A stretch of 64,000 nt of DNA from contig VMGB01000001.1 in the NCBI GenBank assembly GCA_007376295.1, forward strand, positions 80,424-144,423, given 5' to 3'. The notes under the pieces are model-generated. The model was not told where the DNA came from. It searched no databases and was given only the letters and a program-made list of their open reading frames with translations. Each line of letters starts with the position of its first letter. Within the stretch, counting starts at the first letter, position 1. The position numbers and the translations under genes were made by a program. This document shows, piece after piece, positions 5,314-32,316 of this stretch. This DNA is from Parcubacteria group bacterium Gr01-1014_13. GTDB taxonomy: Bacteria; Patescibacteriota; Patescibacteriia; Magasanikbacterales; GWA2-37-8.

Positions 5314-6732
5314 TTATCCTACTGATCCCGTCATCTCTAAAGCAAGTAGGCGATTGAGTTCCACCGCATATTCCATCGGCAATTTTCGGATAATTGGGTT
5401 GGCAAAACCATTTACAATTAAGGTGGCGGCTTGTTCTTCGCTAAGTCCGCGGCTCATTAAGTAGAAAAGTTCATCTTCACCAATACTGGCTACAGTCGCT
5501 TCATGGGCAATAGCGACATCTTCTTCCTTTATATCCATAGTTGGATAGGTATCGGAGCGAGAAGCTGGATCAAGCATTAGGGCATCACAAACTACACGCG
5601 TCTTTACGTTTTTTGCGCCTTTTATTACCTTTACTAATCCGCGATAGGTGGAGCGTCCACCATTTTTACTGATTGATTTGGAGATAATAGTAGAGCTGGT
5701 ATCTGGAGCTAGGTGCATTACTTTTCCGCCCGCATCTTGGTGCTGGCCTTTAGAAGCAAAAGCCAGGGATTGAATTTCTCCTTTGGCACCGCGTTCACGC
5801 AGAATAATGCTAGGATATTTCATGGTAACCTTTGATCCCAAATTGCAGTCTAGCCAAAACATTTCAGCGTTTTCGTAGGCCATAGCTCGTTTGGTCACGA
5901 GATTGTAAACATTCCCAGACCAGTTTTGAATAGTAGTGTATTGAACACGCGCGCCTTTTTTGACAATAATTTCTACTACAGCTGAGTGCAGAGAATCGCT
6001 GGAATAGGTAGGGGCGGTACAACCTTCTACATAGTGCACAGAGCTGCCTTCATCGGCAATAATTAGGGTGCGTTCAAATTGACCCATGTTTTCTATATTT
6101 ATACGGAAATATGCTTGGAGCGGTAACTCTATGTGCACACCTTTGGGCACATAAATAAACGATCCGCCAGACCAAACTGCAGAGTTTAAGGCGGAGAATT
6201 TGTTATCTCCAGGCGGCACAACAGTGCCAAAATGTTTTTTAAAAAGTTCGGGATGGTTTTTTAGAGCGTCGTCAGTGGATTCAAAAATAACACCTTGTTT
6301 GGCCAGATTTTCGGCTAGTGAATGATAAACCATTTCGGATTCAAATTGAGCGCCCGTTCCAGCCAAAAACTTTTTTTCCGCTTCGGGAATTCCTAATTTA
6401 TCAAAAGTGTCTTTAATTTCTTTGGGCACATCATCCCAGTTTCGTTTAGATTTATCTTGAGGGCGAACGTAGTAATGAATATTTTCAAAATCAATACCAG
6501 TAAGATCGGCTCCCCATTTTGGCATTTCTTTTCCTAAAAATACTTCGTAGGCATGCAAACGAAAATCAAGCATCCATTGCGGTTCGCCTTTTTGACGGGA
6601 AATTTCACGGATAATATCAGCATTCAATCCCTTTTTGGAAGCAAAAAAACTTTTAGTTTTGGTACGAAAACTAAAAGCGGAATTATCGCCGGTTTGAGTC
6701 AGCATCTTTTTTGTTTTGAGTGGAACCGGCAT
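5314..6732 (-). CDS. sufB: Fe-S cluster assembly protein SufB
   Basis: 472 aa with the conserved SufB C-terminal region '...[24 protein letters not shown]'. Confidence 0.85.
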
Positions 6733-6735
6733 AAA

Positions 6736-7497
6736 TTACTTTTTGATAAAAGAATCAAAACCGTCCTTCTCTATTTTCTTTACAATCTCTTTACCGCCTT
6801 GGGCAACAATTTTACCTTTGGACATGATATGAATTTTGTCTGGTTTGATAAAATCTAAAATTCTGGGATTGTGGCTGACAATTATTAATCCCATGCCTTG
6901 TTTTTTTTGCACAGCGCCAAGTTGTTTGGCGACAATTTTTAGAGCATCAATGTCTAAACCAGAATCTATTTCGTCCAAAAAAGCAAACGATGGTTCAAGC
7001 ACAGCCATCTGCAAAACTTCCGACTTTTTCTTTTCCCCGCCGGAAAACCCTTCGTTTATCGATCGGGACATAAAAGCCGGGTCTATCTTTAATTTTTCCA
7101 TCTCAGTACGCAAAATGGCAGCAAAAGGAGCTGGTCCAATTGCCGGGGTTTTGGATTTTTGGGCAGTGGCTATGGTATTTTTGGCTAAGCGTAAGAAGTT
7201 ACCCAAAGCCACGCCAGCTACTACCTGAGGGTGCTGGAAGCCCAAAAATAGGCCGTTTTGGGCCCGTTGGGTAGGGGAAAGCTCAAGTATGCCTTTCTTG
7301 TCTAGTATTACGGATCCAGCAGTTACGGTATATTTTGGGTTGCCCATTAAGACAGAGAGCAGGGTGCTTTTTCCAGAGCCATTTTGACCCATAATAATAT
7401 GGACTTCTCCCTGCGAAATATCCAAAGAAACACCGTTTAAAATCTTGGTGCTGCCAATAGCGGCATGTAAGTTTTTTATCTTTAAAGTTTTAAGCAT
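6736..7497 (-). CDS. sufC: Fe-S cluster assembly ATPase SufC
   Basis: Walker A 'GQNGSGKST', ABC signature 'FSGGEKKK', Walker B 'AFLDEIDSGLD'. Start moved to 'MLKTLKIKNL' by alignment logic with SufC N-termini; the ORF-track start is 7515. Confidence 0.85.
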   Translation of the reverse strand: MLKTLKIKNLHAAIGSTKILNGVSLDISQGEVHIIMGQNGSGKSTLLSVLMGNPKYTVTAGSVILDKKGILELSPTQRAQNGLFLGFQHPQVVAGVALGNFLRLAKNTIATAQKSKTPAIGPAPFAAILRTEMEKLKIDPAFMSRSINEGFSGGEKKKSEVLQMAVLEPSFAFLDEIDSGLDIDALKIVAKQLGAVQKKQGMGLIIVSHNPRILDFIKPDKIHIMSKGKIVAQGGKEIVKKIEKDGFDSFIKK

Positions 7498-7623
7498 AAA
7501 AGTGGTAATTTTCAAGCAATCTTTTCTCTCACTATATACGAAAATAACTCAGACGTCAATGGTATGAGTTAAAACAAAAAAGAACGGACAAGACCGCTCT
7601 TCTTTGTATTTTTACACTAAAAA

Positions 7624-7905
7624 TTACATTTTGTGCTCTGTTCCACAATTGCATCCGCCAGGACCGCAATTGCAACCGCTGCCGCTGCCATCTTTGGAGC
7701 ACATCTTGCATTTGCCCATGCATAGCATCATAAGGGCTGATAAGCCTACCAAAATGTAGACTACTCTCTCTACCATTGGCCAGTTGCCCAATAGAGCATT
7801 TACCAGATTCCAGTTAAAAGCGCCTACTAAACCCCAGTTTAATGCTCCAACGAGCACCAATAGCCAGGACACTTTGTGTCCGTGACACATTTTTTTCATC
7901 ATCAT
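7624..7905 (-). CDS. DUF378-family small membrane protein with Cys-rich (metallothionein-like) C-terminal tail
   Basis: 'LLVLVGALNWGLVGAFNWNLVNALLG' is the DUF378 core. The tail 'CMGKCKMCSKDGSGSGCNCGPGGCNCGTEHKM' has 8 Cys in 30 residues. Confidence 0.55.
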   Translation of the reverse strand: MMMKKMCHGHKVSWLLVLVGALNWGLVGAFNWNLVNALLGNWPMVERVVYILVGLSALMMLCMGKCKMCSKDGSGSGCNCGPGGCNCGTEHKM

Positions 7906-7960
7906 AAATGATGGTTAAGAATAAAAAGGTATTATACCACGTTTTTGGGTAGATAGGTAC

Positions 7961-8329
7961 TTAAGCCTTTTTTTCGGGGATGAATTTGAGAGAGACAGAA
8001 TTTACACAGTGGCGGGTATTTTTTGGAGTATAGCCCTCGCCAGTAAAGACATGCCCCAGATGAGCGTCACAAGTATTACAAGTAATTTCGGTGCGCGAGC
8101 CATCAGCATCGGGCGTCTTTTTTACAGCGCCGGGAATTTCTTGATCAAAGCTGGGCCAGCCGCAACCAGAATGAAATTTACTCGTAGAAGTATAGAGCGG
8201 AGTATTACAACGGCGGCAAACATAAGTTCCGGGTACAAAAAAATCATCGTATTCACCGGTAAAAGGTCGTTCAGTACCTTTGTGAACAATTACTTTTTCT
8301 TCTTCGGGGGTTAGGGGATTAAGTTGCAT
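7961..8329 (-). CDS. msrB: peptide-methionine (R)-S-oxide reductase MsrB
   Basis: Two CxxC pairs ('CRRCNTPL', '[12 protein letters not shown]') and 'CGWPSF'. Start taken at internal Met (8329), abutting the upstream gene stop. Confidence 0.85.
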
Positions 8330-8334
8330 ATAAA

Positions 8335-9234
8335 TTATCTGGCTGTAACCAGTAATCGTAGTTTGTGTTTGAGCGCGCATTTCCAAGAGCAGAATGGTTC
8401 TCCTTTTTTGTTTAGACAATTTTCGCAACAGATAAAATGATCATGGCAGGTAGGGAGCAAACAATTTACAAAATTTTCATTTGCAGTGTGGCATTTACGG
8501 CAGCGGCCAACAATTTCATGTTCTCTTTCTGGGCTGCTAAAGGCCATAGTAACGCGGCCGTCAAATACATATAGCTTACCGGCAAAATCTTCATCCGGAT
8601 ATTTTTCCATATACGAAACAATGCCATTATGTAATTGGTAGACATCATTGAAACCATTTGTGACCAAAAATCCAGACGCTTTTTCACAGCGCACACCGCC
8701 GGTGCAAACGGTAACTACAGTTTTGTTTTTTAGATGTTCAAGTTTAGGTAAAATTTTTGGCAGATCACGGAAGTTTTTTAGCGGCGGTAAAATTGAATTT
8801 TTAAAAAATCCGACCGAGTGTTCGTAGTCATTGCGCATGTCGACAATATAAAATTCTTTGCCGCTATGAATCCAATCATGGAGATTTTCCGGAGATAAAT
8901 ATTTTCCCGTGGTAACGGCCGGATTTACATCCGCGTCCCCCAAATGCGCGCTCACAATTTCTGATCGCGCTTTTACGGATAATTTAGGGAAAGCATCGCC
9001 TGTACCAACGCTACGTTTGAAGTTCATATCGTTAAAACGCGGGTCGCTGGCAGTTTCGTCTATATATTTTTGGGTATTTCCCACTAAGCCCTCTACAGTT
9101 CCGTTTATGCCTTCGGGAGCGATAATAATACGGCCTTTCAAGCCTAATTTTTCACAAAGCAATCTTTGAGTACGACAAAATTCGCTGGGGTCAGCGATGT
9201 GGGTATATTTGTAATATAAAAGTATTTCGTGCAT
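8335..9234 (-). CDS. trhO: tRNA uridine(34) hydroxylase TrhO (rhodanese-domain protein YceA family)
   Basis: '[13 protein letters not shown]' N-motif, rhodanese active-site loop '[14 protein letters not shown]', C-terminal Cys cluster. Start set at '[10 protein letters not shown]' (9234). Confidence 0.8.
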
Positions 9235-9287
9235 ATATTTTTCTTCTGCACAAAGTCTACCACTTAAATCAAAAAATTTCAATACTT

Positions 9288-10076
9288 CTACGCTAACCTC
9301 CCAAACATTACGCCAACAACATAGGCGGCCGCGGCGGCAAAACCTCCAAGCAGGAGCATTTCCATGCCAGCGCGATACCATGGCTGGCGAGTAAAATATA
9401 TTTTTAGAGTACCTAGGATAAATAGGGTAATGCCGGTAAGTGAGCAGGCGAGAACAAATGTGTGGGCGGCAAAAAATGGAATAAATTTGGCAATCACATA
9501 AATTAAAACCGGAATAGCGCCAAAGAAAACAAACGAACCAAAAGTAACCAAGGCATTTTTTAATGGTGATTCAGGATTTTCTACCAATCCTAATTCTTCG
9601 ACCATCATAATATCTACCCACGGTTTTTCTATCTTCGACAAGGCATCAACAGCAATTTTTGCATCTTCCGGGGCGATGCCTTTTTCTATATAAAGTTCTA
9701 TCATCTCTTTTTTTTCTCCTTCGGGATAGTTTTGTACTTCCCAGGTTTCGCGCACTCTTTCGGCGGCAGCATATTCATTTTCTGCTTTGGTACTTAAATA
9801 ATCTCCAAAGGCCATAGAAATGCCGTCGGCGATAAGATTGGCAACACCCAAAATTAAAACTATGCTGGCCGATAAATTAGCGCCAGCCACACCGGCGACC
9901 ACAGCAAAGGTGGTGACAATACCATCCAGCCCGCCATAGACAAAACTTTTTAGGTATTGGCCGTGGCCGGTTTGGTGTTCTTCGGGCGCGCCGCCATTGT
10001 CGTGCGCTCTTCGGCTTGCCTCTGGGTCGTTGCGACGAAAGGCGCTGCGGGCTTTTTCTAAATTACGACTTATCAT
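9288..10076 (-). CDS. VIT1/CCC1-family Fe/Mn transporter
   Basis: 'GGLDGIVTTFAVVAGVAG' signature. Cytoplasmic N-domain followed by 5 TM helices. Confidence 0.7.
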   Translation of the reverse strand: MISRNLEKARSAFRRNDPEASRRAHDNGGAPEEHQTGHGQYLKSFVYGGLDGIVTTFAVVAGVAGANLSASIVLILGVANLIADGISMAFGDYLSTKAENEYAAAERVRETWEVQNYPEGEKKEMIELYIEKGIAPEDAKIAVDALSKIEKPWVDIMMVEELGLVENPESPLKNALVTFGSFVFFGAIPVLIYVIAKFIPFFAAHTFVLACSLTGITLFILGTLKIYFTRQPWYRAGMEMLLLGGFAAAAAYVVGVMFGRLA

Positions 10077-10087
10077 AACGTATAATT

Positions 10088-11221
10088 TTATTCAGTAACC
10101 TTGAGCGTGCCCCACTGGCCATTTATTTTGTGGCCTGGTTTGGAACAGTAATAGACAAAATCTCCCGTTTTGTCTGCGGTAAATTCAACTATCACTTCCT
10201 GATTCAGAGGCAGCTCTTCAGTAACCCTAAATTCATTAATTAAAAAATCGTGTATACCCAGGGTGTTGGTGATCTTAATTCTAACCCTATCTCCTTTTTT
10301 TACAACCATTTCCGGCAGGGAAAAAGCTGGTTTTTTGAGCGTCGGATCATAGTAAGCGGTCATGGTAAATTCTTTTACCGATTCGTTTGGGGAATTTTTT
10401 TTGGAAGTTTGGCTATCGCCCTTTAAATTTTTATTTAAGAAATCAACGGTTTTTTTCCAAGCATCTTTTGTTTCATCTGCCGCGTAGTTCATTCCTGAAG
10501 GATTGGCAAAAGCGTGTCCTACGCCTGGGTAGATATGAATTTCATTTGGCGTGCCAAGTTTGTCCAGGGCGGCATCAAATTGGTTTACACTTTCCATGCT
10601 TATAGACGTGTCTTTATCTCCAAATATGCCAAGCACCGGCCATTTGATGGCTTTAAGTTTTTCGGTGGTAGTGGCCAAGCGTCCATAGTAAATAATGGTG
10701 GCATCCATCTTTTCACCGGAAAGCGCTAGCAACAAAGATTGTCCGCCGCCGAAACACCAACCAATAGAAGCGATTTTAGTAACCCCCTGATCTTTTAGAT
10801 ATTTTACTGCCGCCTTCATATTTTTAGTGCCCACTTCTTGGCTAAAATTTGCTGTAAGCGCGCGGGCTTCTTCTTGAGTTTCTACGGATTTACCCAAAAG
10901 GTCTACAGCCAAAACCATGTATCCTTCTCGAGCAAGTTGTTTGGCCATATTGCGAATATTGTCGTTAAGTCCGCGATTCTCATGGATCATAACAATACCC
11001 GGATATTCTCCAGCTTTTTCCGGTCTGGCCAAAAATCCTTTGGCTTGTTCAAAGTAATTTACATCGCTTGTAACTACAGCGTAGCTTCCTTCGCCAGATA
11101 GCATTTCTGAATTTTTTATATTTTTATCTGCGGGAGTAGCGGCTTGTTTTGATTTTGACATAAACAAACCGGCTCCGATAACTAGTATGACGGCCAAAAG
11201 AGGGAATAATAATTTACGCAT
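10088..11221 (-). CDS. secreted dienelactone-hydrolase-family esterase fused to a C-terminal cupredoxin-like domain
   Basis: Signal peptide 'LLAVILVIGAGLF'. DLH motifs 'GIVMIHENRGL' and nucleophile elbow 'IGWCFGG'. C-terminal ~95 aa has a cupredoxin ligand pattern 'GIHDF...YYCSKPGHKINGQWG'. Confidence 0.6.
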   Translation of the reverse strand: MRKLLFPLLAVILVIGAGLFMSKSKQAATPADKNIKNSEMLSGEGSYAVVTSDVNYFEQAKGFLARPEKAGEYPGIVMIHENRGLNDNIRNMAKQLAREGYMVLAVDLLGKSVETQEEARALTANFSQEVGTKNMKAAVKYLKDQGVTKIASIGWCFGGGQSLLLALSGEKMDATIIYYGRLATTTEKLKAIKWPVLGIFGDKDTSISMESVNQFDAALDKLGTPNEIHIYPGVGHAFANPSGMNYAADETKDAWKKTVDFLNKNLKGDSQTSKKNSPNESVKEFTMTAYYDPTLKKPAFSLPEMVVKKGDRVRIKITNTLGIHDFLINEFRVTEELPLNQEVIVEFTADKTGDFVYYCSKPGHKINGQWGTLKVTE

Positions 11222-11259
11222 ATAATTTAAAACTATTTAATAGGGTTAAGTATGATTAA

Positions 11260-11580
11260 TTATACCACAGCTTTTTCTATTTTTAATATCCTTCTTTTCA
11301 TCTCAGCACCTCGGTTGTATTCACCCAATTTTCCATCGGAACGGATTACGCGGTGGCAGGGGATGTCTGGCGCATAATTTTTCTTTAGAGCAGAGCCTAC
11401 GGCCCGATAAGCGTGTGGACGTCCCATTTTTTGCGCCACTTGTTTGTAGGTGAGGGTTTGGCCTTTGGGAATTTTTTTCACCACGGCGTAAACTTTTTCT
11501 TGGAATGGGGTCATAGGATAGCGGTGTGTGATTGATGTTGTCGGAATTACAACCAAGTTAGAAGCAAGAACGCGCCGCAA
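11260..11580 (-). CDS. ogt: methylated-DNA--protein-cysteine methyltransferase (Ogt/MGMT), C-terminal catalytic domain only
   Basis: Active-site 'IPCHRVIRSDGKLGEY'. Only ~106 aa; it lacks the usual N-terminal domain. Confidence 0.75.
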   Translation of the reverse strand: MRRVLASNLVVIPTTSITHRYPMTPFQEKVYAVVKKIPKGQTLTYKQVAQKMGRPHAYRAVGSALKKNYAPDIPCHRVIRSDGKLGEYNRGAEMKRRILKIEKAVV

Positions 11581-11926
11581 AATAGTCCGCTGCTGTTGGT
11601 TGGGCGCCAGCTTTAATTTCGTTGGCGCGTTTGTCTCCTAATTTAGCATAAAAACACTGTTTCATAGCTGGAGTAATGGTAGTTGGCAAGGTTGCAGGGT
11701 CAATACCAATTTTTTCTAGCGCTTTTTCTTGAGTAGGTGATAAAAGAGGATTTTTATCAGTAGTATTACCACTTTCTTTGGTTGTGGATGCGGGTTGGCC
11801 GGTTAAACTTTTGATAATAGGTTTTATTCCGTACGGATCAGTTATGTATAGGTACGCGCCAACAACTAAAAGTATAAAAAATATTACCCCGAGAGTAGTA
11901 AAAAATATTTGTAAAAATTTTTTCAT
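11558..11926 (-). CDS. hypothetical single-pass membrane protein
   Basis: Start set at 'MKKFLQIFFTTLGVIFFILLVVGAY' to avoid overlap with the upstream lipoprotein gene. Low-complexity extracellular region. Confidence 0.35.
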   Translation of the reverse strand: MKKFLQIFFTTLGVIFFILLVVGAYLYITDPYGIKPIIKSLTGQPASTTKESGNTTDKNPLLSPTQEKALEKIGIDPATLPTTITPAMKQCFYAKLGDKRANEIKAGAQPTAADYFAARSCF

Positions 11927-11963
11927 ATTTTTAATATCACAATGGATGAGAGAATAAGTTGAT

Positions 11964-12161
11964 TTAAGGACATTTTGCAAATTCGCATTTTGGGCCACTG
12001 CGGCCGACATAAGAACCGTCTGGGCATTGCTTAGCGTCCATAGTACACATTACTGGTTCGGTGGGCGAGGTGTTTTCTTCACTCCTATCATTTTTAGCAA
12101 CAACACATCCACCGCCGGTTAAAATTAACAAAGCCACTAGGCCTAGAAATACTTTTTTCAT
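11964..12161 (-). CDS. small secreted/lipoprotein-like Cys-rich protein (65 aa)
   Basis: Signal peptide plus lipobox-like 'LTGGGC'. 6 Cys in the mature region. Confidence 0.4.
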   Translation of the reverse strand: MKKVFLGLVALLILTGGGCVVAKNDRSEENTSPTEPVMCTMDAKQCPDGSYVGRSGPKCEFAKCP

Positions 12162-12221
12162 AAATTTTTGTATTTTATTATAATTCTTAATGTTACTATA
12201 TAACTTTTATATTATATGGGC

Positions 12222-12258
12222 AATAGGGTATTGACTATGCCATTAAATTGTGCTGTAA
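12222..12258 (+). promoter_or_regulatory. putative sigma70-type promoter for ridA (TTGACT ... TGTAATAAT)
   Basis: -35-like TTGACT followed ~17 nt later by a TG-extended AT-rich -10-like element. Confidence 0.3.
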
Positions 12259-12307
12259 TAATTGGAGATCTTTGAATATAGACTATAAAACAGAGAGGGG
12301 GGGTGCC

Positions 12308-12781
12308 ATGAGAACATATCTGTTTACGAAGAGAGCGCCAACGCCTGGCCCCTACAGTCAGGCAATTTGTGTCGAAGATGCTGGCAAAATGATTTTTTTG
12401 TCAGGTCAAACTGGAAATATTCCGGGAATCAAAGGTGAACCAGTTATTGCCGGTGGCCTTGGTCCTCAAACCACTCAGGCATTAAAGAATATTTTGGCTA
12501 TCGTTGAAACTGTTGGTGGTAAGATTCAGCATATTGTGGAATTAAAGATTTTTCTCAAGGATAGCGAGGCGTCCAAGGAAGAGAGGCCGCTGGCAAGAGC
12601 TGCTGCGAGAAAAACTCTTAATGAAGCCTATGAGGAGTTCTTTTTTCAGTATGGTCATTCCAGAGAAAGAAAAAATCTTCCTGCCAGAACCATGGTTTGG
12701 GTGTCGGAAGTGCCATTGGAATTTCCGGCCGAAGATACTTTGGTAGAGATAACCGCCATAGCGGTTATTCCAAAGCGTTGA
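12308..12781 (+). CDS. ridA: RidA/YjgF-family reactive-intermediate deaminase
   Basis: 'RTYLFTKRAPTPGPYSQAICVEDAGKMIFLSGQTG'. Start set at ATG 12308. Confidence 0.75.
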   Translation: MRTYLFTKRAPTPGPYSQAICVEDAGKMIFLSGQTGNIPGIKGEPVIAGGLGPQTTQALKNILAIVETVGGKIQHIVELKIFLKDSEASKEERPLARAAARKTLNEAYEEFFFQYGHSRERKNLPARTMVWVSEVPLEFPAEDTLVEITAIAVIPKR

Positions 12782-12832
12782 TTTTTTAAAAAGCAACGCA
12801 CAAATTTATAGGTCGCTTACTAGCGGCCTTTT

Positions 12833-13009
12833 TCATTTCTTAGGAGGAACTTTGGCGCCGCTTTTTCTAGCTTCGGACAAGCCGATAGCAATAGCCTGTT
12901 TCCTGCTAGTAACTTTTTTTCTACTTTTTCCGGATTTTAAAGTTCCGGTTTTGTATTCATGCATTACTTTTTTCATTTTTTTCTTTGTCTTTGGTCCATA
13001 TTTTGGCAT
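12833..13009 (-). CDS. small basic (Lys-rich) protein, unknown function
   Basis: 'MPKYGPKTKKKMKK...KQAIAIGLSEARKSGAKVPPKK'; start set at the internal Met. Confidence 0.4.
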   Translation of the reverse strand: MPKYGPKTKKKMKKVMHEYKTGTLKSGKSRKKVTSRKQAIAIGLSEARKSGAKVPPKK

Positions 13010-13138
13010 ATTTATTATTAAATGAATAAAAATAACCACTCAGGGTAAATTATCCCATATTATCTATGAAATAAGTATGAAGTATTTTTAAAGTAAAAGA
13101 TATTTAAAACCACTCTAATACATAGAGTGGTTGCTATT

Positions 13139-13648
13139 TTATAGCATTTCGGTTTTGATTTTTTCAATCAGTGGGCCGTGGGTGCAGCGGAAAATGAAAC
13201 CGTCGTCAAGTTTAATATCATGAGTCGTGTGATGCGGCCGTTCTACTTTTATCACACTCTCCGACCATTCTAGAATTGCGATCATTGCATGATACGTTAA
13301 AGAGGTAGGGAAAACTTCGACATGATCAAATCCATTTTTTTGAGAATTATCCGGTTTTTGATCGGAAAGTTCGAGGAAATTGATTTCTCCCAACGCTGTG
13401 TTGATGCCACGCTTTAATTTTATGTAAGCAATTCGGCGCCCAGAAATAATGCTTTGGTAGATATATTCACTTGTAGATTCTAGCAGAGTTCGTATAAAAT
13501 CAAATGATTCTTTTGATTCGCATTTATAACAAATATGATCTGCTCTAGTTTTTCCTTGAAGGTCGTATTTGTTTGCAAAATCGTTAAAAGAGCGCATTGA
13601 TTTTTCTGCTTCAATGTAAAATTCGTCGAGTGTTTTAATGATATCCAT
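13139..13648 (-). CDS. YecM-like VOC (glyoxalase-fold) family protein
   Basis: 'RADHICYKCES' and 'NGFDHVEVFP' resemble E. coli YecM motifs 'ADHISLRCH' and 'EGWEHIEIV' (from memory). Confidence 0.45.
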   Translation of the reverse strand: MDIIKTLDEFYIEAEKSMRSFNDFANKYDLQGKTRADHICYKCESKESFDFIRTLLESTSEYIYQSIISGRRIAYIKLKRGINTALGEINFLELSDQKPDNSQKNGFDHVEVFPTSLTYHAMIAILEWSESVIKVERPHHTTHDIKLDDGFIFRCTHGPLIEKIKTEML

Positions 13649-13692
13649 GAAATTATTATATATTAAAAATAACCCTATTGTATAGGGTTATC

Positions 13693-13783
13693 TGGCGGAG
13701 AGGGAGAGATTCGAACTCTCGAGGGATTTTACTCCCTGCCACGTTAGCAGTGTGGTGCCTTCAACCATCTCGGCCACCTCTCC
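13693..13783 (-). tRNA. tRNA-Ser (anticodon GCU), class II with long variable arm, CCA encoded
   Basis: Reverse complement folds as a cloverleaf. Perfect 7-bp acceptor stem GGAGAGG/CCTCTCC, discriminator G, encoded CCA. Anticodon loop CU-GCU-AA, long variable arm, T-loop GTTCGAATC. Confidence 0.85.
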
Positions 13784-29526: not shown

Positions 29527-29571
29527 AAAAGTGCACCGTCCCGCAATTGCGTGGGCGGTTTTTATTTTAGT

Positions 29572-29601
29572 TTGACAGTATTTAAAAATACGTGCTATAG
29601 T
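29572..29601 (+). promoter_or_regulatory. putative sigma70-type promoter (TTGACA-18-TATAGT) for the MntR/DtxR operon
   Basis: Consensus -35 and near-consensus -10, directly upstream of the operator palindrome. Confidence 0.45.
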
Positions 29602-29604
29602 TAT

Positions 29605-29620
29605 GTTCGTATATACGAAC
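29605..29620. promoter_or_regulatory. perfect 16-bp palindrome GTTCGTATATACGAAC; candidate MntR/DtxR operator
   Basis: Sits between the -10 and the ATG (29629) of the metalloregulator gene, the classic autoregulatory operator position. Confidence 0.5.
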
Positions 29621-29628
29621 AAATTAGT

Positions 29629-30039
29629 ATGTCACGAATTACTCCTACTCGAGAAGATTATCTCCGGGCCATATACCGTTTTTCCCAAAAAGATACCCGC
29701 GTTCGTATTATTGACATCGCGCGTAATTTGAATTTGGCTCGTTCCACAGTTTCCGAAAGAGTTCAAGATTTAAAGAATGCAAATTTTATAAAATCCGGCC
29801 AAAATGAAGAGGGGATTGTCCTGAGCAAAAAAGGATTGCTATTGGCCCGGCAACTCACCTACAAACACCGTTTGATTGAAGTTTTTCTCCACAAAGTTTT
29901 GCATATGGATGCCAAAAAAGTCCATGCGGAAGCGCATAAACTAGAACATGCGTTTTCCGATGAAGTGATTGCTCGTTTGGCCAAGTTTCTAGGCAACCCT
30001 AAAAAAGATCCGCACGGAGAAAAAATTACTAAAGTTTAA
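29629..30039 (+). CDS. DtxR/MntR-family metal-dependent transcriptional repressor
   Basis: 'TREDYLRAIYRF' N-terminal helix and 'ARNLNLARSTVSERVQDL' HTH, a classic DtxR-family N-domain. Start set at ATG 29629. Confidence 0.8.
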   Translation: MSRITPTREDYLRAIYRFSQKDTRVRIIDIARNLNLARSTVSERVQDLKNANFIKSGQNEEGIVLSKKGLLLARQLTYKHRLIEVFLHKVLHMDAKKVHAEAHKLEHAFSDEVIARLAKFLGNPKKDPHGEKITKV

Positions 30040-30053
30040 ATTTTTTAAAAAAT

Positions 30054-31088
30054 ATGTCTCAGAAAAAATTTATCACACTTATTACTGTAATATTGGTTGC
30101 CGTGGCAGCAGTAGTTTTTGGCGGCTATAAATTTAACAAGAAAAATAGCGGTCACGACTATGTTAAATTACATCAGGAGGCCCAAAAAAATATAGGTCCT
30201 ACCGGACAGTATCAGACCGATGATTTTGATCCTACGGAATTTTTGACAACCTGGAATTTCAACAATCTTCCTGAAAAAGAGCGCGCCAAATTTTATAAAG
30301 AAACAGCTCTTGCCGACGGGACTTTATTGCGTGAGTATAATTTTTTTATAGAAGACAAAGAAATTGAAGTTGCTCCCGGAGTCTTTTTTCCGGCCTGGGC
30401 ATATAATGGCCAGGTACCTGGCCCAACTATCCGCGCCACCGAAGGTGATACGGTTAAAATAACCCTTATAAATGGCGGTTCAAAACCTCATTCGGCTCAT
30501 TTTCACGGTTTTCATTCCGCAGAAATGGATGGTTCGGCTCCCGAGGACATGGTTTTACCGGGAGAAAATTTTACCTATGAATTCAAAGCGGGTCCATTTG
30601 GCACTCATGTTTATCATTGTCACAGTTATCCAGTTTCCCAACATATAACGAAGGGGTTATATGGTGCTTATATTGTGGATCCAAAAAATGATACTAGACC
30701 AAAAGCGGACAAGGAATTAGTAATGGTGATGAATGGTTTTGATACTGATTTTGATGGCGCTAACGATATTTATGCTGTCAATACTATGGCCTTTGCTTAT
30801 AACTATAAACCAATAATGGTTAAGAAAGGCGAGTTAGTGCGTATTCATTTGAGTAATATGCTTCAGTTTGATCTGGTTAACTCATTTCATTTGCACGCCA
30901 ATTTTTTTAACGAATATAAGACCGGTACAAGTTTAAAACCCGATAATTTTACGGACACAATTACTTTGGGGCCGGCGGAAAGATCGGTTTTAGATGTCAG
31001 ATTTAGAGAACCGGGCATGTTTATGTTCCACGCTCATGTGCAGGAATTTGCTGAGTTGGGTTGGACCGGTATGTTTATGGTGGAATAA
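30054..31088 (+). CDS. two-domain cupredoxin-fold multicopper-oxidase/NirK-like protein, membrane-anchored
   Basis: N-terminal TM. Cu-ligand motifs 'HSAHFHGFH' (HxH), 'HVYHCHSYPVSQH' (HCH + distal His) and 'FHAHV'. Confidence 0.6.
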   Translation: MSQKKFITLITVILVAVAAVVFGGYKFNKKNSGHDYVKLHQEAQKNIGPTGQYQTDDFDPTEFLTTWNFNNLPEKERAKFYKETALADGTLLREYNFFIEDKEIEVAPGVFFPAWAYNGQVPGPTIRATEGDTVKITLINGGSKPHSAHFHGFHSAEMDGSAPEDMVLPGENFTYEFKAGPFGTHVYHCHSYPVSQHITKGLYGAYIVDPKNDTRPKADKELVMVMNGFDTDFDGANDIYAVNTMAFAYNYKPIMVKKGELVRIHLSNMLQFDLVNSFHLHANFFNEYKTGTSLKPDNFTDTITLGPAERSVLDVRFREPGMFMFHAHVQEFAELGWTGMFMVE

Positions 31089-31107
31089 ATATTTTAAAAC
31101 TATTATT

Positions 31108-32316
31108 ATGTCTCAAATATCAGAAACAAATAGGGGGTTAAAAACATGGATTAGTTTTTTGTTGCCGCTCATTTTGTTAGCGGGGCTTCTCTGGGGTTTT
31201 ATAAAATACGGTCCTCTGGGAGTATTTAAAGCAGAATTTCCTCCTGTCGAAAAACTTGTTATCCAGAGAGTGAATTTCATGCCCGAACGTATTGATCTTG
31301 AAGTTTTTAATGATGGGCCGGAATCTGTGACTGTTGCCCAGTTGGTAGTCAATGAAGTTATCTGGCAATTCAAAATGCAGCCTGATAATAATACCTTGAA
31401 GCCTTTGGAAGGCGGAGTAGTATCATTGGCTTATCCTTGGACTGAAGGCGATCCGATTGCTTTTACATTAATATCCAGCGATGGTGTTACTTTTGGAAAA
31501 GAAGTTGATGTAGCTTTTTTGACCCCAACCATTGATGCAACATACTTACGAACCTTTATTCTGCTTGGTTTGTATGTCGGTGTTGTTCCGGTGCTACTCG
31601 GTCTGCTTTGGTTTCCGTTTTTACGCAGGCTTAAAGGCAAAGGATATCTGTTTTTGCTATCTTTGACCATCGGTCTTCTGTTATTTTTAGGATTTTCTAC
31701 TTTGGCTGAATCTATAGAACTAATTGGCGAGTTGCCAAGCGCCTTTAATGGCGTCGGACTGCTTGTTATTGGATTTGTTTCAGCAATTTTAATTCTTGGC
31801 GCAGTGACTTATAAAACAGAATTTAGTTTGGCTAATAAGAGTGATCATTCCAAAGCTTTAATATGGTCATACTTAATAGCTTTGGGTATTGGATTGCATA
31901 ATCTGGGCGAGGGTCTGGCTATAGGTAGCGCTTATACTTTAGGTGAGATTGCTTTAGGATCTACTCTGGTTATTGGTTTTATGGTGCATAATGTTACCGA
32001 AGGGGTGGCGATTATTTCTCCGCTGACTCATGGTGAAGTTAAAATAAAAAGATTTTTTAAACATCTTTTGTTAATGGGACTACTAGCTGGCGCGCCGACT
32101 ATTCTAGGAAGTTTAATTGGTGGGTTCGCTTACTCTCCTGTTTATGGCGTCCTCTTTTTGGCTATTGGCGCCGGAGCTATCTTTGATGTTACTTTTGATA
32201 TTCTTCATCATATGGCCAAAGGACGTTGGAATTCTTTGTTTACCACCACCAATGTCTTTGGGTTTTTAGCAGGCTTATTTCTTATGTACGTAACTGGATT
32301 TCTGGTTTTGGGCTAA
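31108..32316 (+). CDS. ZIP-family (ZupT-like) divalent metal permease with N-terminal extracytoplasmic domain
   Basis: 'LGIGLHNLGEGLAIGSAY' and 'FMVHNVTEGVAII' are ZIP signature His/Glu helices. Start set at ATG 31108. Confidence 0.7.
   Translation: MSQISETNRGLKTWISFLLPLILLAGLLWGFIKYGPLGVFKAEFPPVEKLVIQRVNFMPERIDLEVFNDGPESVTVAQLVVNEVIWQFKMQPDNNTLKPLEGGVVSLAYPWTEGDPIAFTLISSDGVTFGKEVDVAFLTPTIDATYLRTFILLGLYVGVVPVLLGLLWFPFLRRLKGKGYLFLLSLTIGLLLFLGFSTLAESIELIGELPSAFNGVGLLVIGFVSAILILGAVTYKTEFSLANKSDHSKALIWSYLIALGIGLHNLGEGLAIGSAYTLGEIALGSTLVIGFMVHNVTEGVAIISPLTHGEVKIKRFFKHLLLMGLLAGAPTILGSLIGGFAYSPVYGVLFLAIGAGAIFDVTFDILHHMAKGRWNSLFTTTNVFGFLAGLFLMYVTGFLVLG

Follow-up and report, generated by a model that had tools for sequence, protein, structure and literature searches.

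What does a copper domain do at the end of a hydrolase, and how did it come to be there? The question is raised by an open reading frame in the DNA analyzed here, a 64,000-nucleotide stretch that we refer to as the window. Its 377-residue product is identical to the NCBI entry [quoted passage not shown]. Reading from the N terminus, the protein comprises a transmembrane anchor (residues 5–23), a hydrolase of the dienelactone hydrolase (DLH) family, a disordered linker of 12 residues (GDSQTSKKNSPN), and a cupredoxin domain (residues 280–377) (Table 1). The DLH annotation conceals a predicted copper center that is itself unannotated. The whole protein contains two cysteines only, Cys156 and Cys359, one in each active center.

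Table 1. Positions of the fusion gene, its parts and predicted active-site codons, and neighboring or partner genes in the window.
Feature	Position (nt)	Strand	Basis or remark
Whole ORF with stop, 377 residues (TM anchor, DLH module, linker, cupredoxin)	10088..11221	-	codons checked
Upstream leader, start codon, and signal anchor, residues 1–27	11142..11242	-	orthologous to the start of the gene for stand-alone cupredoxins, 5' end
Inserted segment, ~757 nt, residues ~28–279 (mature DLH module and linker)	10385..11141	-	blastn
DLH domain (PF01738), residues 61–264	10430..11041	-	Pfam E 2e-51
Cys156 codon, predicted nucleophile in GWCFGG	10754..10756	-	invariant; codon checked
Asp204 codon, predicted triad acid	10610..10612	-	invariant; Asp in 4zv9 and 9bld; codon checked
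His236 codon, predicted triad base	10514..10516	-	invariant; His in 4zv9 and 9bld; codon checked
Interdomain linker, residues 268–279, predicted disordered	10385..10420	-	pLDDT <50
Cupredoxin domain, residues 280–377	10091..10384	-	Pfam PF13473, AF2, Foldseek
His324 codon, predicted first Cu ligand (GIHDF)	10250..10252	-	121/121; His of QHD in 6tfd
Cys359 codon, predicted Cu thiolate ligand (YYCS), sole Cys of the domain	10145..10147	-	121/121
His364 codon, predicted second His ligand (PGH)	10130..10132	-	120/121; His of LPGH in 6tfd
Gln369 codon, predicted axial ligand (GQWG)	10115..10117	-	axial Met of GMQG in 6tfd
Gene of a VIT1-family metal transporter, next downstream of the fusion	9288..10076	-	Pfam VIT1 E 1e-69
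DNA_binding_1 (MGMT-like) gene, upstream synteny anchor	11260..11580	-	Pfam E 1e-31
Membrane-anchored two-domain multicopper oxidase	30054..31088	+	Pfam Cu-oxidase_3 and Cu-oxidase_2; PDB 3gdc E 4e-95

The source is a metagenome-assembled genome from groundwater and the exact protein occurs in one 90% cluster only, so we considered whether two separate genes might have been joined by chimeric assembly or by a frameshift in sequencing. A Logan contig from an independent assembly by another assembler (SRR8863434), however, is 100% identical to the window over 7,647 bp, both junctions included, and neither misassembly nor a frameshift therefore accounts for the fusion. The two junctions keep the reading frame and coincide with domain boundaries, the anchor lies upstream and the cupredoxin downstream of the DLH domain, an order that read-through of adjacent genes cannot give, and comparable fusions are present in other genomes. 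We regard an artefact as extremely unlikely.

The hydrolase module scores 175 bits on PF01738 (cut-off 21), covering profile positions 2–215 of 217, and its matches in the Protein Data Bank include 4zv9 (E 1e-27) and 1din (E 4e-15). In the full-length AlphaFold2 (AF2) model, pLDDT exceeds 90 over residues 49–267, where strands and helices alternate as in an alpha/beta hydrolase fold. Cys156 falls in the same alignment column as the Cys of GFCYGGG in 4zv9 and of GFCCGG in 9bld, and the predicted triad together with Glu81, from an upstream HE motif, aligns with its equivalents in the solved DLH-family proteins 4zv9, 9bld, and 1din. All four residues are invariant in alignments A1 and A5 (77 homologues). 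The profile match and the alignment to solved DLHs bear out the original prediction of a DLH-family hydrolase at the N terminus and show its Cys nucleophile to be intact, and the module is most likely a surface esterase or lactonase using a putative Cys156-His236-Asp204 triad.

This module has in common with the DLH family (PF01738; ClcD, 1din; 4zv9; the carboxymethylenebutenolidase 9bld; the Escherichia coli YghX type) the fold, the elbow Cys of G-x-C-x-G-G, both other triad residues (Asp and His), and the HE-motif Glu. Characterized DLHs, however, act in chlorocatechol catabolism as soluble enzymes of the cytoplasm, whereas the DLH of the window is predicted to be extracytoplasmic, is tethered to the membrane, and is fused to a copper domain. 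The window protein scores 120 bits on the NCBIfam YghX model, whose cut-off is 460. Because of the extracytoplasmic site and the lack of catechol-pathway genes among the neighbors, we doubt that dienelactone hydrolysis, the carboxymethylenebutenolidase activity that gives the protein its name, is the reaction of this module.

The C-terminal domain reaches the cut-off of Pfam Cupredoxin_1 (PF13473; 27 bits) with 27.3 bits within the full protein and 29.0 bits on its own. Its AF2 model has a pLDDT of 91.5 and nine beta strands, and all 50 top matches listed by Foldseek against the PDB are cupredoxin copper domains (TM 0.68–0.78, probability 1.00). The best of them are 6tfo and 6tfd, at TM 0.76–0.78 and an rmsd of 2.2–2.4 Å (over 111 columns for the superposition on 6tfo). 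The ~95 C-terminal residues had been proposed to form a blue-copper domain, and both the model, whose fold could have argued otherwise, and the Foldseek matches agree with that proposal. The motif on which it was built is also present: His324 in GIHDF is followed 35 residues on by Cys359-x4-His364-x4-Gln369 in YYCSKPGHKINGQWG. In the sequence alignment these four residues are in register with the His, Cys, His, and Met of 6tfd, which, taken with the superposition on 6tfo, suggests that they would cluster around one metal site. Of 121 family members, 115 have Gln at position 369 and 5 have His. We therefore assign the cupredoxin module as a predicted type-1 copper center with Gln369 as axial ligand. 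Both modules are intact and under constraint, which has been shown for the cupredoxin domain; its dN/dS against stand-alone orthologues is 0.06–0.11, beside 0.06 for VIT1.

Among solved structures, the domain is closest to the extra, N-terminal T1Cu domain of three-domain NirK, to nitrosocyanin, and to the CuA domain of NosZ. The first of these, the T1Cu domain of the three-domain copper nitrite reductase (NiR) of Hyphomicrobium denitrificans (6tfd/6tfo, 2dv6), is the best match in both sequence (6tfd, E 7e-12) and fold. The two domains agree in His...Cys-x4-His-x4-axial spacing and are nearly identical in YYCSxPGH, but the axial ligand of the NiR domain is Met where the window domain has Gln, and the NiR domain sits on a nitrite reductase rather than on a hydrolase and a membrane anchor. 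Nitrosocyanin (1iby), a red copper protein and small single-domain cupredoxin, is also close (E 6.5e-7; Foldseek E 1.8e-8). It ligates copper by one Cys, two His, and one Glu. His324 aligns with nitrosocyanin ISE, the Glu of which we take to be its copper ligand, and the window loop reads C-x4-H-x4-Q. Nitrosocyanin identity was rejected, as the ligand content differs and TIGR03096 gives 29.1 bits against a cut-off of 142.85. The CuA site of NosZ and cytochrome oxidase subunit II is binuclear, bridged by a pair of Cys (C-x3-C) and further ligated by two His and a Met; the window domain has a single Cys and scores 15–34 bits on the NosZ and CoxB models (cut-offs 148–700), which excludes a CuA identity.

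Phytocyanins have a conserved disulfide beside their copper site; a domain with a single Cys cannot form one. For this reason, and since no phytocyanin occurs among the 60 sequence matches and 50 fold matches listed, phytocyanin identity was likewise rejected. An axial Gln on a His-Cys-His site is nonetheless common to the window domain, stellacyanin and other phytocyanins, and auracyanin D, the last being a bacterial precedent for axial-Gln type-1 copper (PMC10804444); neither auracyanin D nor the phytocyanins appear among the best sequence and fold matches listed. The description of the site as stellacyanin-like thus holds for its ligand chemistry and not for its kinship: the resemblance is one of ligands, not of descent.

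The full-length AF2 model has a pLDDT of 93 and a helix at residues 5–23. Its pTM, an indirect gauge of interdomain flexibility, is 0.69. pLDDT falls below 50 in both linkers, at residues 273–277 in the case of the interdomain linker and at the equivalent residues 6–11 of the domain model, and the model contains no confident interface between the DLH and cupredoxin modules. The hydrolase had been described as secreted; we find the DLH assignment sound, but the N-terminal helix looks uncleaved, which points to a membrane-anchored protein. As modeled, the fusion is a two-module ectoprotein held by this single helix on the outside of the cytoplasmic membrane.

The history of the gene can be read from sister loci. 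The order DNA_binding_1, cupredoxin, VIT1, TrhO, MsrB, DUF378, SUF is common to the window and its sisters and recurs in L002, L003, L005, and L006, with VIT1 in the same position in each; the usual place of the resident cupredoxin gene is between DNA_binding_1/Glyoxalase and VIT1/SUF. In the sister genomes that gene encodes a stand-alone protein of 134–141 residues. Such anchored Patescibacteria cupredoxins (e.g., P0121 and P0122; annotated as "cupredoxin domain-containing protein", some as plastocyanin or "pcy") have a domain 76–84% identical to that of the window protein, the same signal anchor, and the same ligands including the axial Gln, but they are without the 252-residue DLH insertion in the linker. 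Compared with L002 by blastn, the window yields three blocks: the DNA_binding_1 gene (84% identity, L002 7197..7454), the leader and anchor (82%, E 1e-23, L002 7982..8080), and the cupredoxin and VIT1 (81%), with the cupredoxin domain itself 81% identical from L002 8130 onward. The intervening 757 nt have no blastn counterpart in L002, L003, L004, or L005, whereas both flanks match at 76–84%. Local blastn was chosen over MAFFT for locus DNA because MAFFT misaligned the 5' part owing to the glyoxalase gene.

The protein sequences lead to the same picture. The N-terminal 40 residues score 125–129 against the anchors of the stand-alone cupredoxins P0121, P0137, and P0122, and at most 76 against any stand-alone DLH, so that by sequence the anchor is evolutionarily that of the cupredoxin and not of the hydrolase. 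The nearest relatives of the DLH module are stand-alone DLHs at 61–70% identity; the other fusions rank 112–119 of 119 among its relatives. In the neighbor-joining trees of both domains, which were built without bootstrap from a similarity-biased sample and used only for this separation and for the monophyly of the Met-type fusions (see below), the window protein stands apart from all other fusions. The insert bears no compositional sign of recent transfer (GC 0.42, against 0.40 for the window). Comparison with the sister loci shows an in-frame insertion of the mature DLH module into the linker between anchor and copper domain of a resident cupredoxin gene. In this Parcubacteria lineage, the mature part of a gene for a DLH-family cysteine hydrolase entered that flexible linker.

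Comparing two loci does not by itself tell an insertion from a deletion, and the window and the sister loci, with dS of ~0.8–1.2 between them, are not very close, so the fused state might instead be ancestral and the stand-alone sisters the products of precise DLH deletion. We consider this very unlikely: the anchor-linker-domain layout is common to more than 100 stand-alone members from many lineages, this anchor is combined with a DLH only in the window protein, the DLH module nests among stand-alone DLHs, and L002, L004, L005, and L011 would each have needed an identical clean deletion. The insertion also alters how the surroundings are to be read. The original prediction pointed to a neighborhood rich in metal and redox genes; the neighborhood is there, as the ancestral locus of the cupredoxin, and because the hydrolase is a newcomer to it, it is uninformative on the hydrolase.

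The same reader had not known of a hydrolase-cupredoxin fusion. The architecture is indeed rare, with ~14 clusters beside the 6,000-plus hits to stand-alone DLHs, but it is not unique. We found at least 14 protein clusters in three to four separate classes with axial Gln, His, or Met: the insertion in the window, a clade comprising P0002–P0007, a clade of axial-Met lipoproteins, and P0418, whose axial ligand is His. The six Met-type fusions are monophyletic in the neighbor-joining tree (no bootstrap, similarity-biased sample). The classes differ in cupredoxin subtype and signal peptide, and catalytic and ligand residues are kept in all of them. The DLH-cupredoxin architecture is accordingly rare but recurrent, and the pairing, as judged by sequence, arose several times.

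What the copper domain does is suggested by its family. Distant members are the N-terminal domains of multicopper oxidase (MCO) and NirK proteins, as is the best PDB match of the window domain, and the family is also fused to cytochrome b5 and to a thioredoxin-like domain; DLH is the sole non-redox partner found. Around the stand-alone genes, 13 of 63 loci have a NOX/FRE-like gene (Ferric_reduct, FAD_binding_8, and NAD_binding_1) near the cupredoxin; in 7 of the 13 it follows the cupredoxin gene directly, on the same strand, after a gap of 10–64 nt. By analogy with relatives that adjoin NOX/FRE-like transmembrane reductases or form part of multicopper enzymes, the cupredoxin probably carries electrons outside the cytoplasm. 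Single-domain Patescibacteria cupredoxins have been proposed as electron carriers to NirK (PMC12931201). This "pcy"-to-NirK proposal and the auracyanin D precedent were all that a literature search for DLH-cupredoxin fusions turned up, and a search on cupredoxins and ferric-reductase-like proteins of the CPR returned the same two items.

The module in the window most likely keeps this ancestral one-electron carrier job outside the membrane. In relatives, an adjacent transmembrane NAD(P)H reductase of the NOX/FRE type would supply the electrons; no NOX/FRE-like gene lies within the 64-kb window. In this genome, the anchored two-domain multicopper oxidase encoded 19 kb from the fusion, in which an HCH motif was seen by eye, is a likely candidate redox partner by analogy, as acceptor or donor. 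The oxidase is closest to the two-domain multicopper oxidase (2dMCO) 3gdc, and NirK identity was rejected for it (TIGR02376, 105 bits against a cut-off of 296).

The copper domain could also be a binding, buffering, or sensing module, chaperone-like in the manner of CupA, that guards or regulates Cys156, a nucleophile sensitive to copper and oxidation, or takes part in metal homeostasis by VIT1/SUF. CupA (4f2e/2mry) is among the sequence and fold matches, the nearest relatives adjoin VIT1 and the SUF operon, and each active center holds one of the two cysteines of the protein. Yet the two-Cys and Met ligands of CupA are missing from the window domain, which rules out a CupA identity, and C-x4-H-x4-Q together with the upstream His makes up the canonical motif for type-1 electron transfer and lines up with the T1Cu domain of 6tfd. 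The operonic NOX/FRE-like partners and the fusions to MCO, cytochrome b5, and thioredoxin-like domains also favor electron transfer, and we give this alternative a slim chance. An iron-related role for the cupredoxin, instead of electron transfer, could be indicated by the SUF/VIT1 synteny seen in its nearest relatives.

Do the two modules work as a couple? The pTM of the model, the low-confidence linkers, the lack of a shared DLH-cupredoxin neighborhood, and the joining of DLH domains elsewhere to META, Gmad2, and YceI domains together argue that they are independent. Among ~75 loci of stand-alone cupredoxins from GTDB species representatives, a DLH gene was found by HMM within 10 kb at L030 only, 6 kb away on the opposite strand, and DLH and cupredoxin genes being so rarely neighbors, conserved neighborhoods lend no "Rosetta stone" support to a link. 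Two stand-alone DLH loci (P0009 and P0011) and three further fusions (P0003, P0004, and P0005) have unrelated contexts in which no copper or redox genes were found. The esterase is probably an independent passenger on the cupredoxin's anchor, and the two modules would then have the anchor and their location alone in common. Recurrence in at least 14 clusters and three to four classes, on the other hand, exceeds what would be expected of a pairing without selective value and counts against a passenger role.

A functional couple would account for that recurrence. Here the DLH would cleave an ester or lactone at the surface and so free a redox-active product, such as a hydroquinone, a catechol, or an enediol, and the tethered copper would oxidize it and pass the electron to a multicopper oxidase, or would reduce the substrate or product, the fusion being selected for proximity. 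The independent recurrence of the pairing, the retention of catalytic and ligand residues in every class, the conspicuousness of a hydrolase among partners that are otherwise all redox modules, and the two-domain MCO encoded in the window fit such a scheme. It is opposed by the disordered linker without a confident interface, the stand-alone genes without a conserved neighborhood, the non-redox domains that DLH also joins, and the tiny minority that the fusions represent, and we consider it rather unlikely. With somewhat better than even confidence, we favor as the best overall explanation an anchored protein born by insertion, in which an electron-carrier cupredoxin and an independent surface esterase share one chain.

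A broader form of the coupled scheme would make the DLH-cupredoxin protein a module selected for at the surface of ultra-small episymbionts (CPR, with some DPANN going by source labels) that frees a redox-active compound from esters while its copper harvests or delivers the electron, within a minimal chain of NOX/FRE-like NAD(P)H reductase, anchored cupredoxins, and two-domain multicopper oxidase. We think this distinctly unlikely. If the coupled reading were true, the esters would come from the host or the environment, and the extracytoplasmic electron chain would be one previously undescribed.

Patescibacteria are thought to be nearly devoid of respiratory machinery. They nevertheless encode anchored type-1 copper proteins widely, and a cupredoxin family operonic with NOX/FRE-like reductases may offer CPR cells an exit for cytoplasmic reducing equivalents. 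The locus itself is an unusually clean case, visible in the DNA, of a new multidomain surface protein made when an enzyme module landed in a disordered linker. If the pairing is functional, it would represent a new kind of hydrolysis-linked redox chemistry on the episymbiont surface; if it is not, the linker-rich anchored ectoproteins of these reduced genomes would be hot spots of neutral domain accretion.

The fusion gene lies where the original prediction placed it, on the minus strand at 10088..11221, and its re-derived codon positions give a 377-residue protein identical to the NCBI MAG protein [quoted passage not shown] (495-kb contig). The surrounding region (window 6073..13719) is 100% identical in an independently assembled Logan contig (run SRR8863434). 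Two assemblers thus agree on the reading frame and on both junctions between the domains, and an artefact is an extremely improbable explanation of the fusion.

The N-terminal module is, by sequence, a complete DLH-type cysteine hydrolase. Pfam DLH (PF01738) covers residues 61–264 (E 2e-51; 175 bits, where 21 would suffice), and the matching solved structures include 4zv9 (E 1e-27), the carboxymethylenebutenolidase 9bld, 3f67, and Pseudomonas DLH 1din (E 4e-15). Cys156 of the GWCFGG elbow, Asp204, His236, and Glu81 of the IHE motif align with the equivalent residues of solved DLH-family structures and are invariant in alignments of 10 and 77 sequences, bearing out the earlier assignment to this family. 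The NCBIfam YghX model gives only 120 bits (cut-off 460), and there are no catechol-pathway genes beside the gene. The CPR-type DLH module is also found fused to META (P0050), Gmad2 Ig-like (P0293), and YceI-like lipid/isoprenoid-binding (P0312) domains, which makes it a promiscuous partner in fusions with extracytoplasmic domains; another DLH relative, P0268, carries an N-terminal membrane extension.

The last ≈98 residues just reach the curated Pfam Cupredoxin_1 cut-off of 27 bits (27.3 in context, 29.0 alone). With phmmer, this module matches three-domain nitrite reductases in their extra N-terminal type-1 copper domain (6tfd, E 7e-12; 2dv6), as well as nitrosocyanin (6.5e-7) and NosZ CuA domains. 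An AlphaFold2 model of the domain (121 homologues as input) has nine β strands and a mean pLDDT of 91.5, and the top Foldseek PDB matches listed are all cupredoxin copper domains, with 6tfo/6tfd first (TM 0.76–0.78, rmsd 2.2–2.4 Å) and nitrosocyanin, NosZ, Fet3p, and CupA following. The suspected cupredoxin fold is thus upheld. In the HMMER alignment to 6tfd, His324 (GIHDF) is opposite the ligand histidine of QHD, and YYCSKPGH is opposite YYCSLPGH; the YYCSxPGH motif is nearly the same in both, but Gln369 (GQWG) replaces the axial methionine of GMQG. Among the 121 members of the family compared, His324 and Cys359 never vary, His364 is present in 120, and the axial position is glutamine in 115 and histidine in 5. 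Fold, ligand alignment, and conservation together support the predicted type-1 copper site with glutamine in place of methionine, and the in-register superposition suggests that the ligands cluster at one site. The description "stellacyanin-like" holds for the site chemistry (axial glutamine) but not beyond it; such a type-1 site has a bacterial precedent in auracyanin D (PMC10804444). Cys156 and Cys359 are the only cysteines in the protein, which rules out a CuA site as well as a disulfide of the phytocyanin type. Both modules belong to well-known families by every membership test that could be applied.

A search with just the copper domain gave 365 relatives; the best 120, those listed, are small proteins (about 89–168 aa) with source names, where present, mostly from Patescibacteria; the top stand-alone cupredoxins are 76–84% identical to the window domain. 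Their N-termini account for that of the fusion: the stand-alone P0121 starts with MRKLLFPILVVVVVIGAGLFMSKSKQTEAPTDTN..., the fusion protein with MRKLLFPLLAVILVIGAGLFMSKSKQAATPADKN..., and its residues 1–40 score 125–129 against the anchors of stand-alone P0121, P0137, and P0122 versus at most 76 against 113 stand-alone DLHs. The gene order DNA_binding_1 – Glyoxalase – cupredoxin – VIT1 – TrhO (rhodanese) – SelR/MsrB – DUF378 – SufC-SufB is common to the window and the sister loci L002, L003, L005, and L006, except that Glyoxalase is missing in the window; a fifth, L004, has cupredoxin – SUF. When the window is compared with L002 by local blastn, three collinear blocks result (see table), and window 11141..10385 (757 nt, residues ≈28–279) stands where L002 has 49 nt of linker. 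This segment has no counterpart in any sister locus, and a fusion ancestral at the locus is very unlikely. In the protein, the residues derived from a DLH extend from about Ile35/Lys36 (KNSEML, with which mature DLHs conservedly begin) to Lys267 (FLNKNLK), followed by the linker GDSQTSKKNSP and then NESVKEF, where the cupredoxin module starts in P0124 and P0137. Most simply, an anchor-less DLH module was inserted in frame into the disordered linker of a resident cupredoxin gene. The insert is compositionally ordinary (GC 0.42 vs 0.40), and dS between the window and sister loci, about 0.8–1.2, is too high for the insertion to count as very recent. The dN/dS of the cupredoxin module against stand-alone orthologues is 0.06–0.11, like that of the adjacent VIT1 gene (0.06), and the copper module is therefore still under purifying selection. 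The Glyoxalase/VOC gene missing from the window encodes 131 residues; at window 11243-11258, the DNA_binding_1 and fusion ORFs are just about 38 nt apart.

Features of the window and of loci encoding relatives
Feature	Location	Strand	Remarks
blastn block 1	window 11516..11259		DNA_binding_1; 84% to L002
blastn block 2	window 11242..11142		leader and first ~27 codons of cupredoxin gene; 82%, E 1e-23 to L002
blastn block 3	window 10384..9289		cupredoxin domain and VIT1; 81% to L002
Glyoxalase/VOC gene	L002:7574-7969, L005:3452-3847		between DNA_binding_1 and cupredoxin in sister loci
DUF378 membrane protein	window 7624-7905	-	Cys/Gly-rich C-terminal tail
Small anchored protein	window 11558-12010	-	~123-150 aa; no Pfam match
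DtxR-type iron-dependent repressor	window 29551-30039	+	adjoins multicopper oxidase
Anchored two-domain multicopper oxidase	window 30054..31088	+	Pfam Cu-oxidase_3 and Cu-oxidase_2; PDB 3gdc E 4e-95
Membrane protein, weak ZIP match	window 30994-32316	+	440 aa; 31.7 bits vs cut-off 35.1
Cupredoxin and NOX/FRE-type gene pair	L031:5223-7259, L029:2898-4748, L038:9740-11567, L057:9710-11633, L021:9893-11614, L017:9842-11635, L066:2586-4516		
Fusion and tandem-array proteins of the cupredoxin family	P0376, P0382, P0338-P0341, P0347, P0379, P0390		

The combination had been considered unfamiliar, and our literature search found no description of a DLH-cupredoxin protein, but other fusions exist. A full-length search of more than 6,000 DLH relatives identified six further two-domain proteins (P0002-P0007; 49–63% identity to the window protein) in unrelated genomic contexts. 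A profile of seven fusions recovered a second class (P0253, P0289, P0297, P0311, P0320, and P0328) whose signal peptides are of the lipoprotein type and whose cupredoxin has the classical Cys-x4-His-x4-Met pattern; P0311 comes from a MAG labeled DPANN archaea. An exhaustive scan with HMMER, covering 1.84 billion representatives, added P0418, a divergent DLH keeping Cys, Asp, and His with an axial-His cupredoxin. At least 111 stand-alone DLHs are closer to the window DLH module than any other fusion is, and the closest relatives of its copper module are likewise stand-alone. In neighbor-joining trees of both domains (no bootstrap, biased sampling), the window protein never joins another fusion, whereas the six Met-type fusions are monophyletic for both. 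These class differences, relatives, and placements indicate that the pairing arose repeatedly, at least three times and probably four. The window protein and both its Pfam hits are already public, yet under a hydrolase-only name; what is new is the combination of domains and the documented way in which it arose, not the chemistry of each part.

At E ≤ 1e-10, the cupredoxin family falls into 423 representative clusters (50% identity). Unbiased neighbor clustering of 63 stand-alone loci gave one clearly recurrent partner (13 loci), a membrane protein of ≈440 residues with Ferric_reduct (di-haem transmembrane), FAD_binding_8, and NAD_binding_1 domains, by its domain content a NOX/FRE-type transmembrane NAD(P)H oxidoreductase. 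At the tabulated loci, labeled Patescibacteria/DPANN, its gene follows the cupredoxin gene on the same strand after a gap of 10–64 nt, in what looks like a two-gene operon that could hand electrons drawn from NAD(P)H in the cytoplasm to an external copper carrier. The literature searched holds no description of this pair, and no NOX/FRE-like gene occurs within the 64-kb window. In more distant members (L062, L070, L077, L079, L085, L088, L089), the cupredoxin forms the N-terminal domain of a multicopper oxidase/NirK protein; in L061, a two-domain MCO lies 1.5 kb upstream, and cytochrome b5 (P0376) and a thioredoxin-like domain (P0382) are further fusion partners, both with axial histidine. The ligand set, the NOX/FRE partner, and these fusions support a role as a one-electron carrier on the outer face of the membrane, a role that one recent paper likewise assumes for Patescibacteria "pcy" proteins feeding NirK (PMC12931201), and a copper-buffering or regulatory role appears improbable. 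Tandem arrays of 2–6 cupredoxin domains also occur, in proteins of up to 787 aa. Close homologues (up to 65% identity) are present in DPANN-labeled MAGs (L012, L014, L021, L043, L049, L058, L061, L072, L078, L081; Aenigmatarchaeota, Woesearchaeota, Pacearchaeota, Micrarchaeota, "Nanoarchaeia"), which, with the one fusion so labeled, implies CPR-DPANN gene exchange or mis-binning.

The metal/redox neighborhood originally noted (VIT1, TrhO, MsrB, DUF378, and SUF, in that order) recurs in the sister loci, but SufC lies within 6 kb of the cupredoxin in only 8 of 85 loci (VIT1 in 4 of 85), mostly among the closest relatives, and the iron-related synteny is therefore largely a feature of the clade, not of the family. 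In L002, L003, and L005, the DUF378 gene is likewise flanked by MsrB and SufC; the tail of its product (…CKMCSKDGSGSGCNCGPGGCNCG…) looks like a metal-binding motif. The small anchored protein recurs near the cupredoxin in L004, L005, L011, and L053, with the motif MKKFLQIFF…PLLSP.QEKALEKIGIDPA.LP…CF.AKLG..RA.EI. The window multicopper oxidase, below the NirK cut-off and 19 kb from the fusion gene, belongs to a three-gene cluster (29551-32316, plus strand) that may be a metal-regulated oxidase/transporter unit and may be a candidate partner of the cupredoxin.

In the full-length AlphaFold2 model (pLDDT 93, pTM only 0.69), the transmembrane helix (5–23), DLH, and cupredoxin domains are arranged as beads on a string, segments 25–28 and 273–277 fall below pLDDT 50, and no confident interface joins the two domains. 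Of ≈75 stand-alone cupredoxin loci, essentially one has a DLH gene within 10 kb. The missing interface and gene linkage favor modules that most likely act independently on a shared anchor. Mechanistic coupling of hydrolase and copper center is kept alive by the recurrence of the pairing, but the same model and loci, together with the META, Gmad2, and YceI fusions of DLH, make it unlikely. We consider the whole account, in which a DLH passenger entered the gene of an electron-carrying cupredoxin and the modules work independently, moderately probable. Interest in the protein would rise substantially if the hydrolase and copper center prove mechanistically coupled, or if the cupredoxin, NOX-like, and MCO set turns out to serve CPR bacteria as a minimal electron chain outside the cytoplasm.
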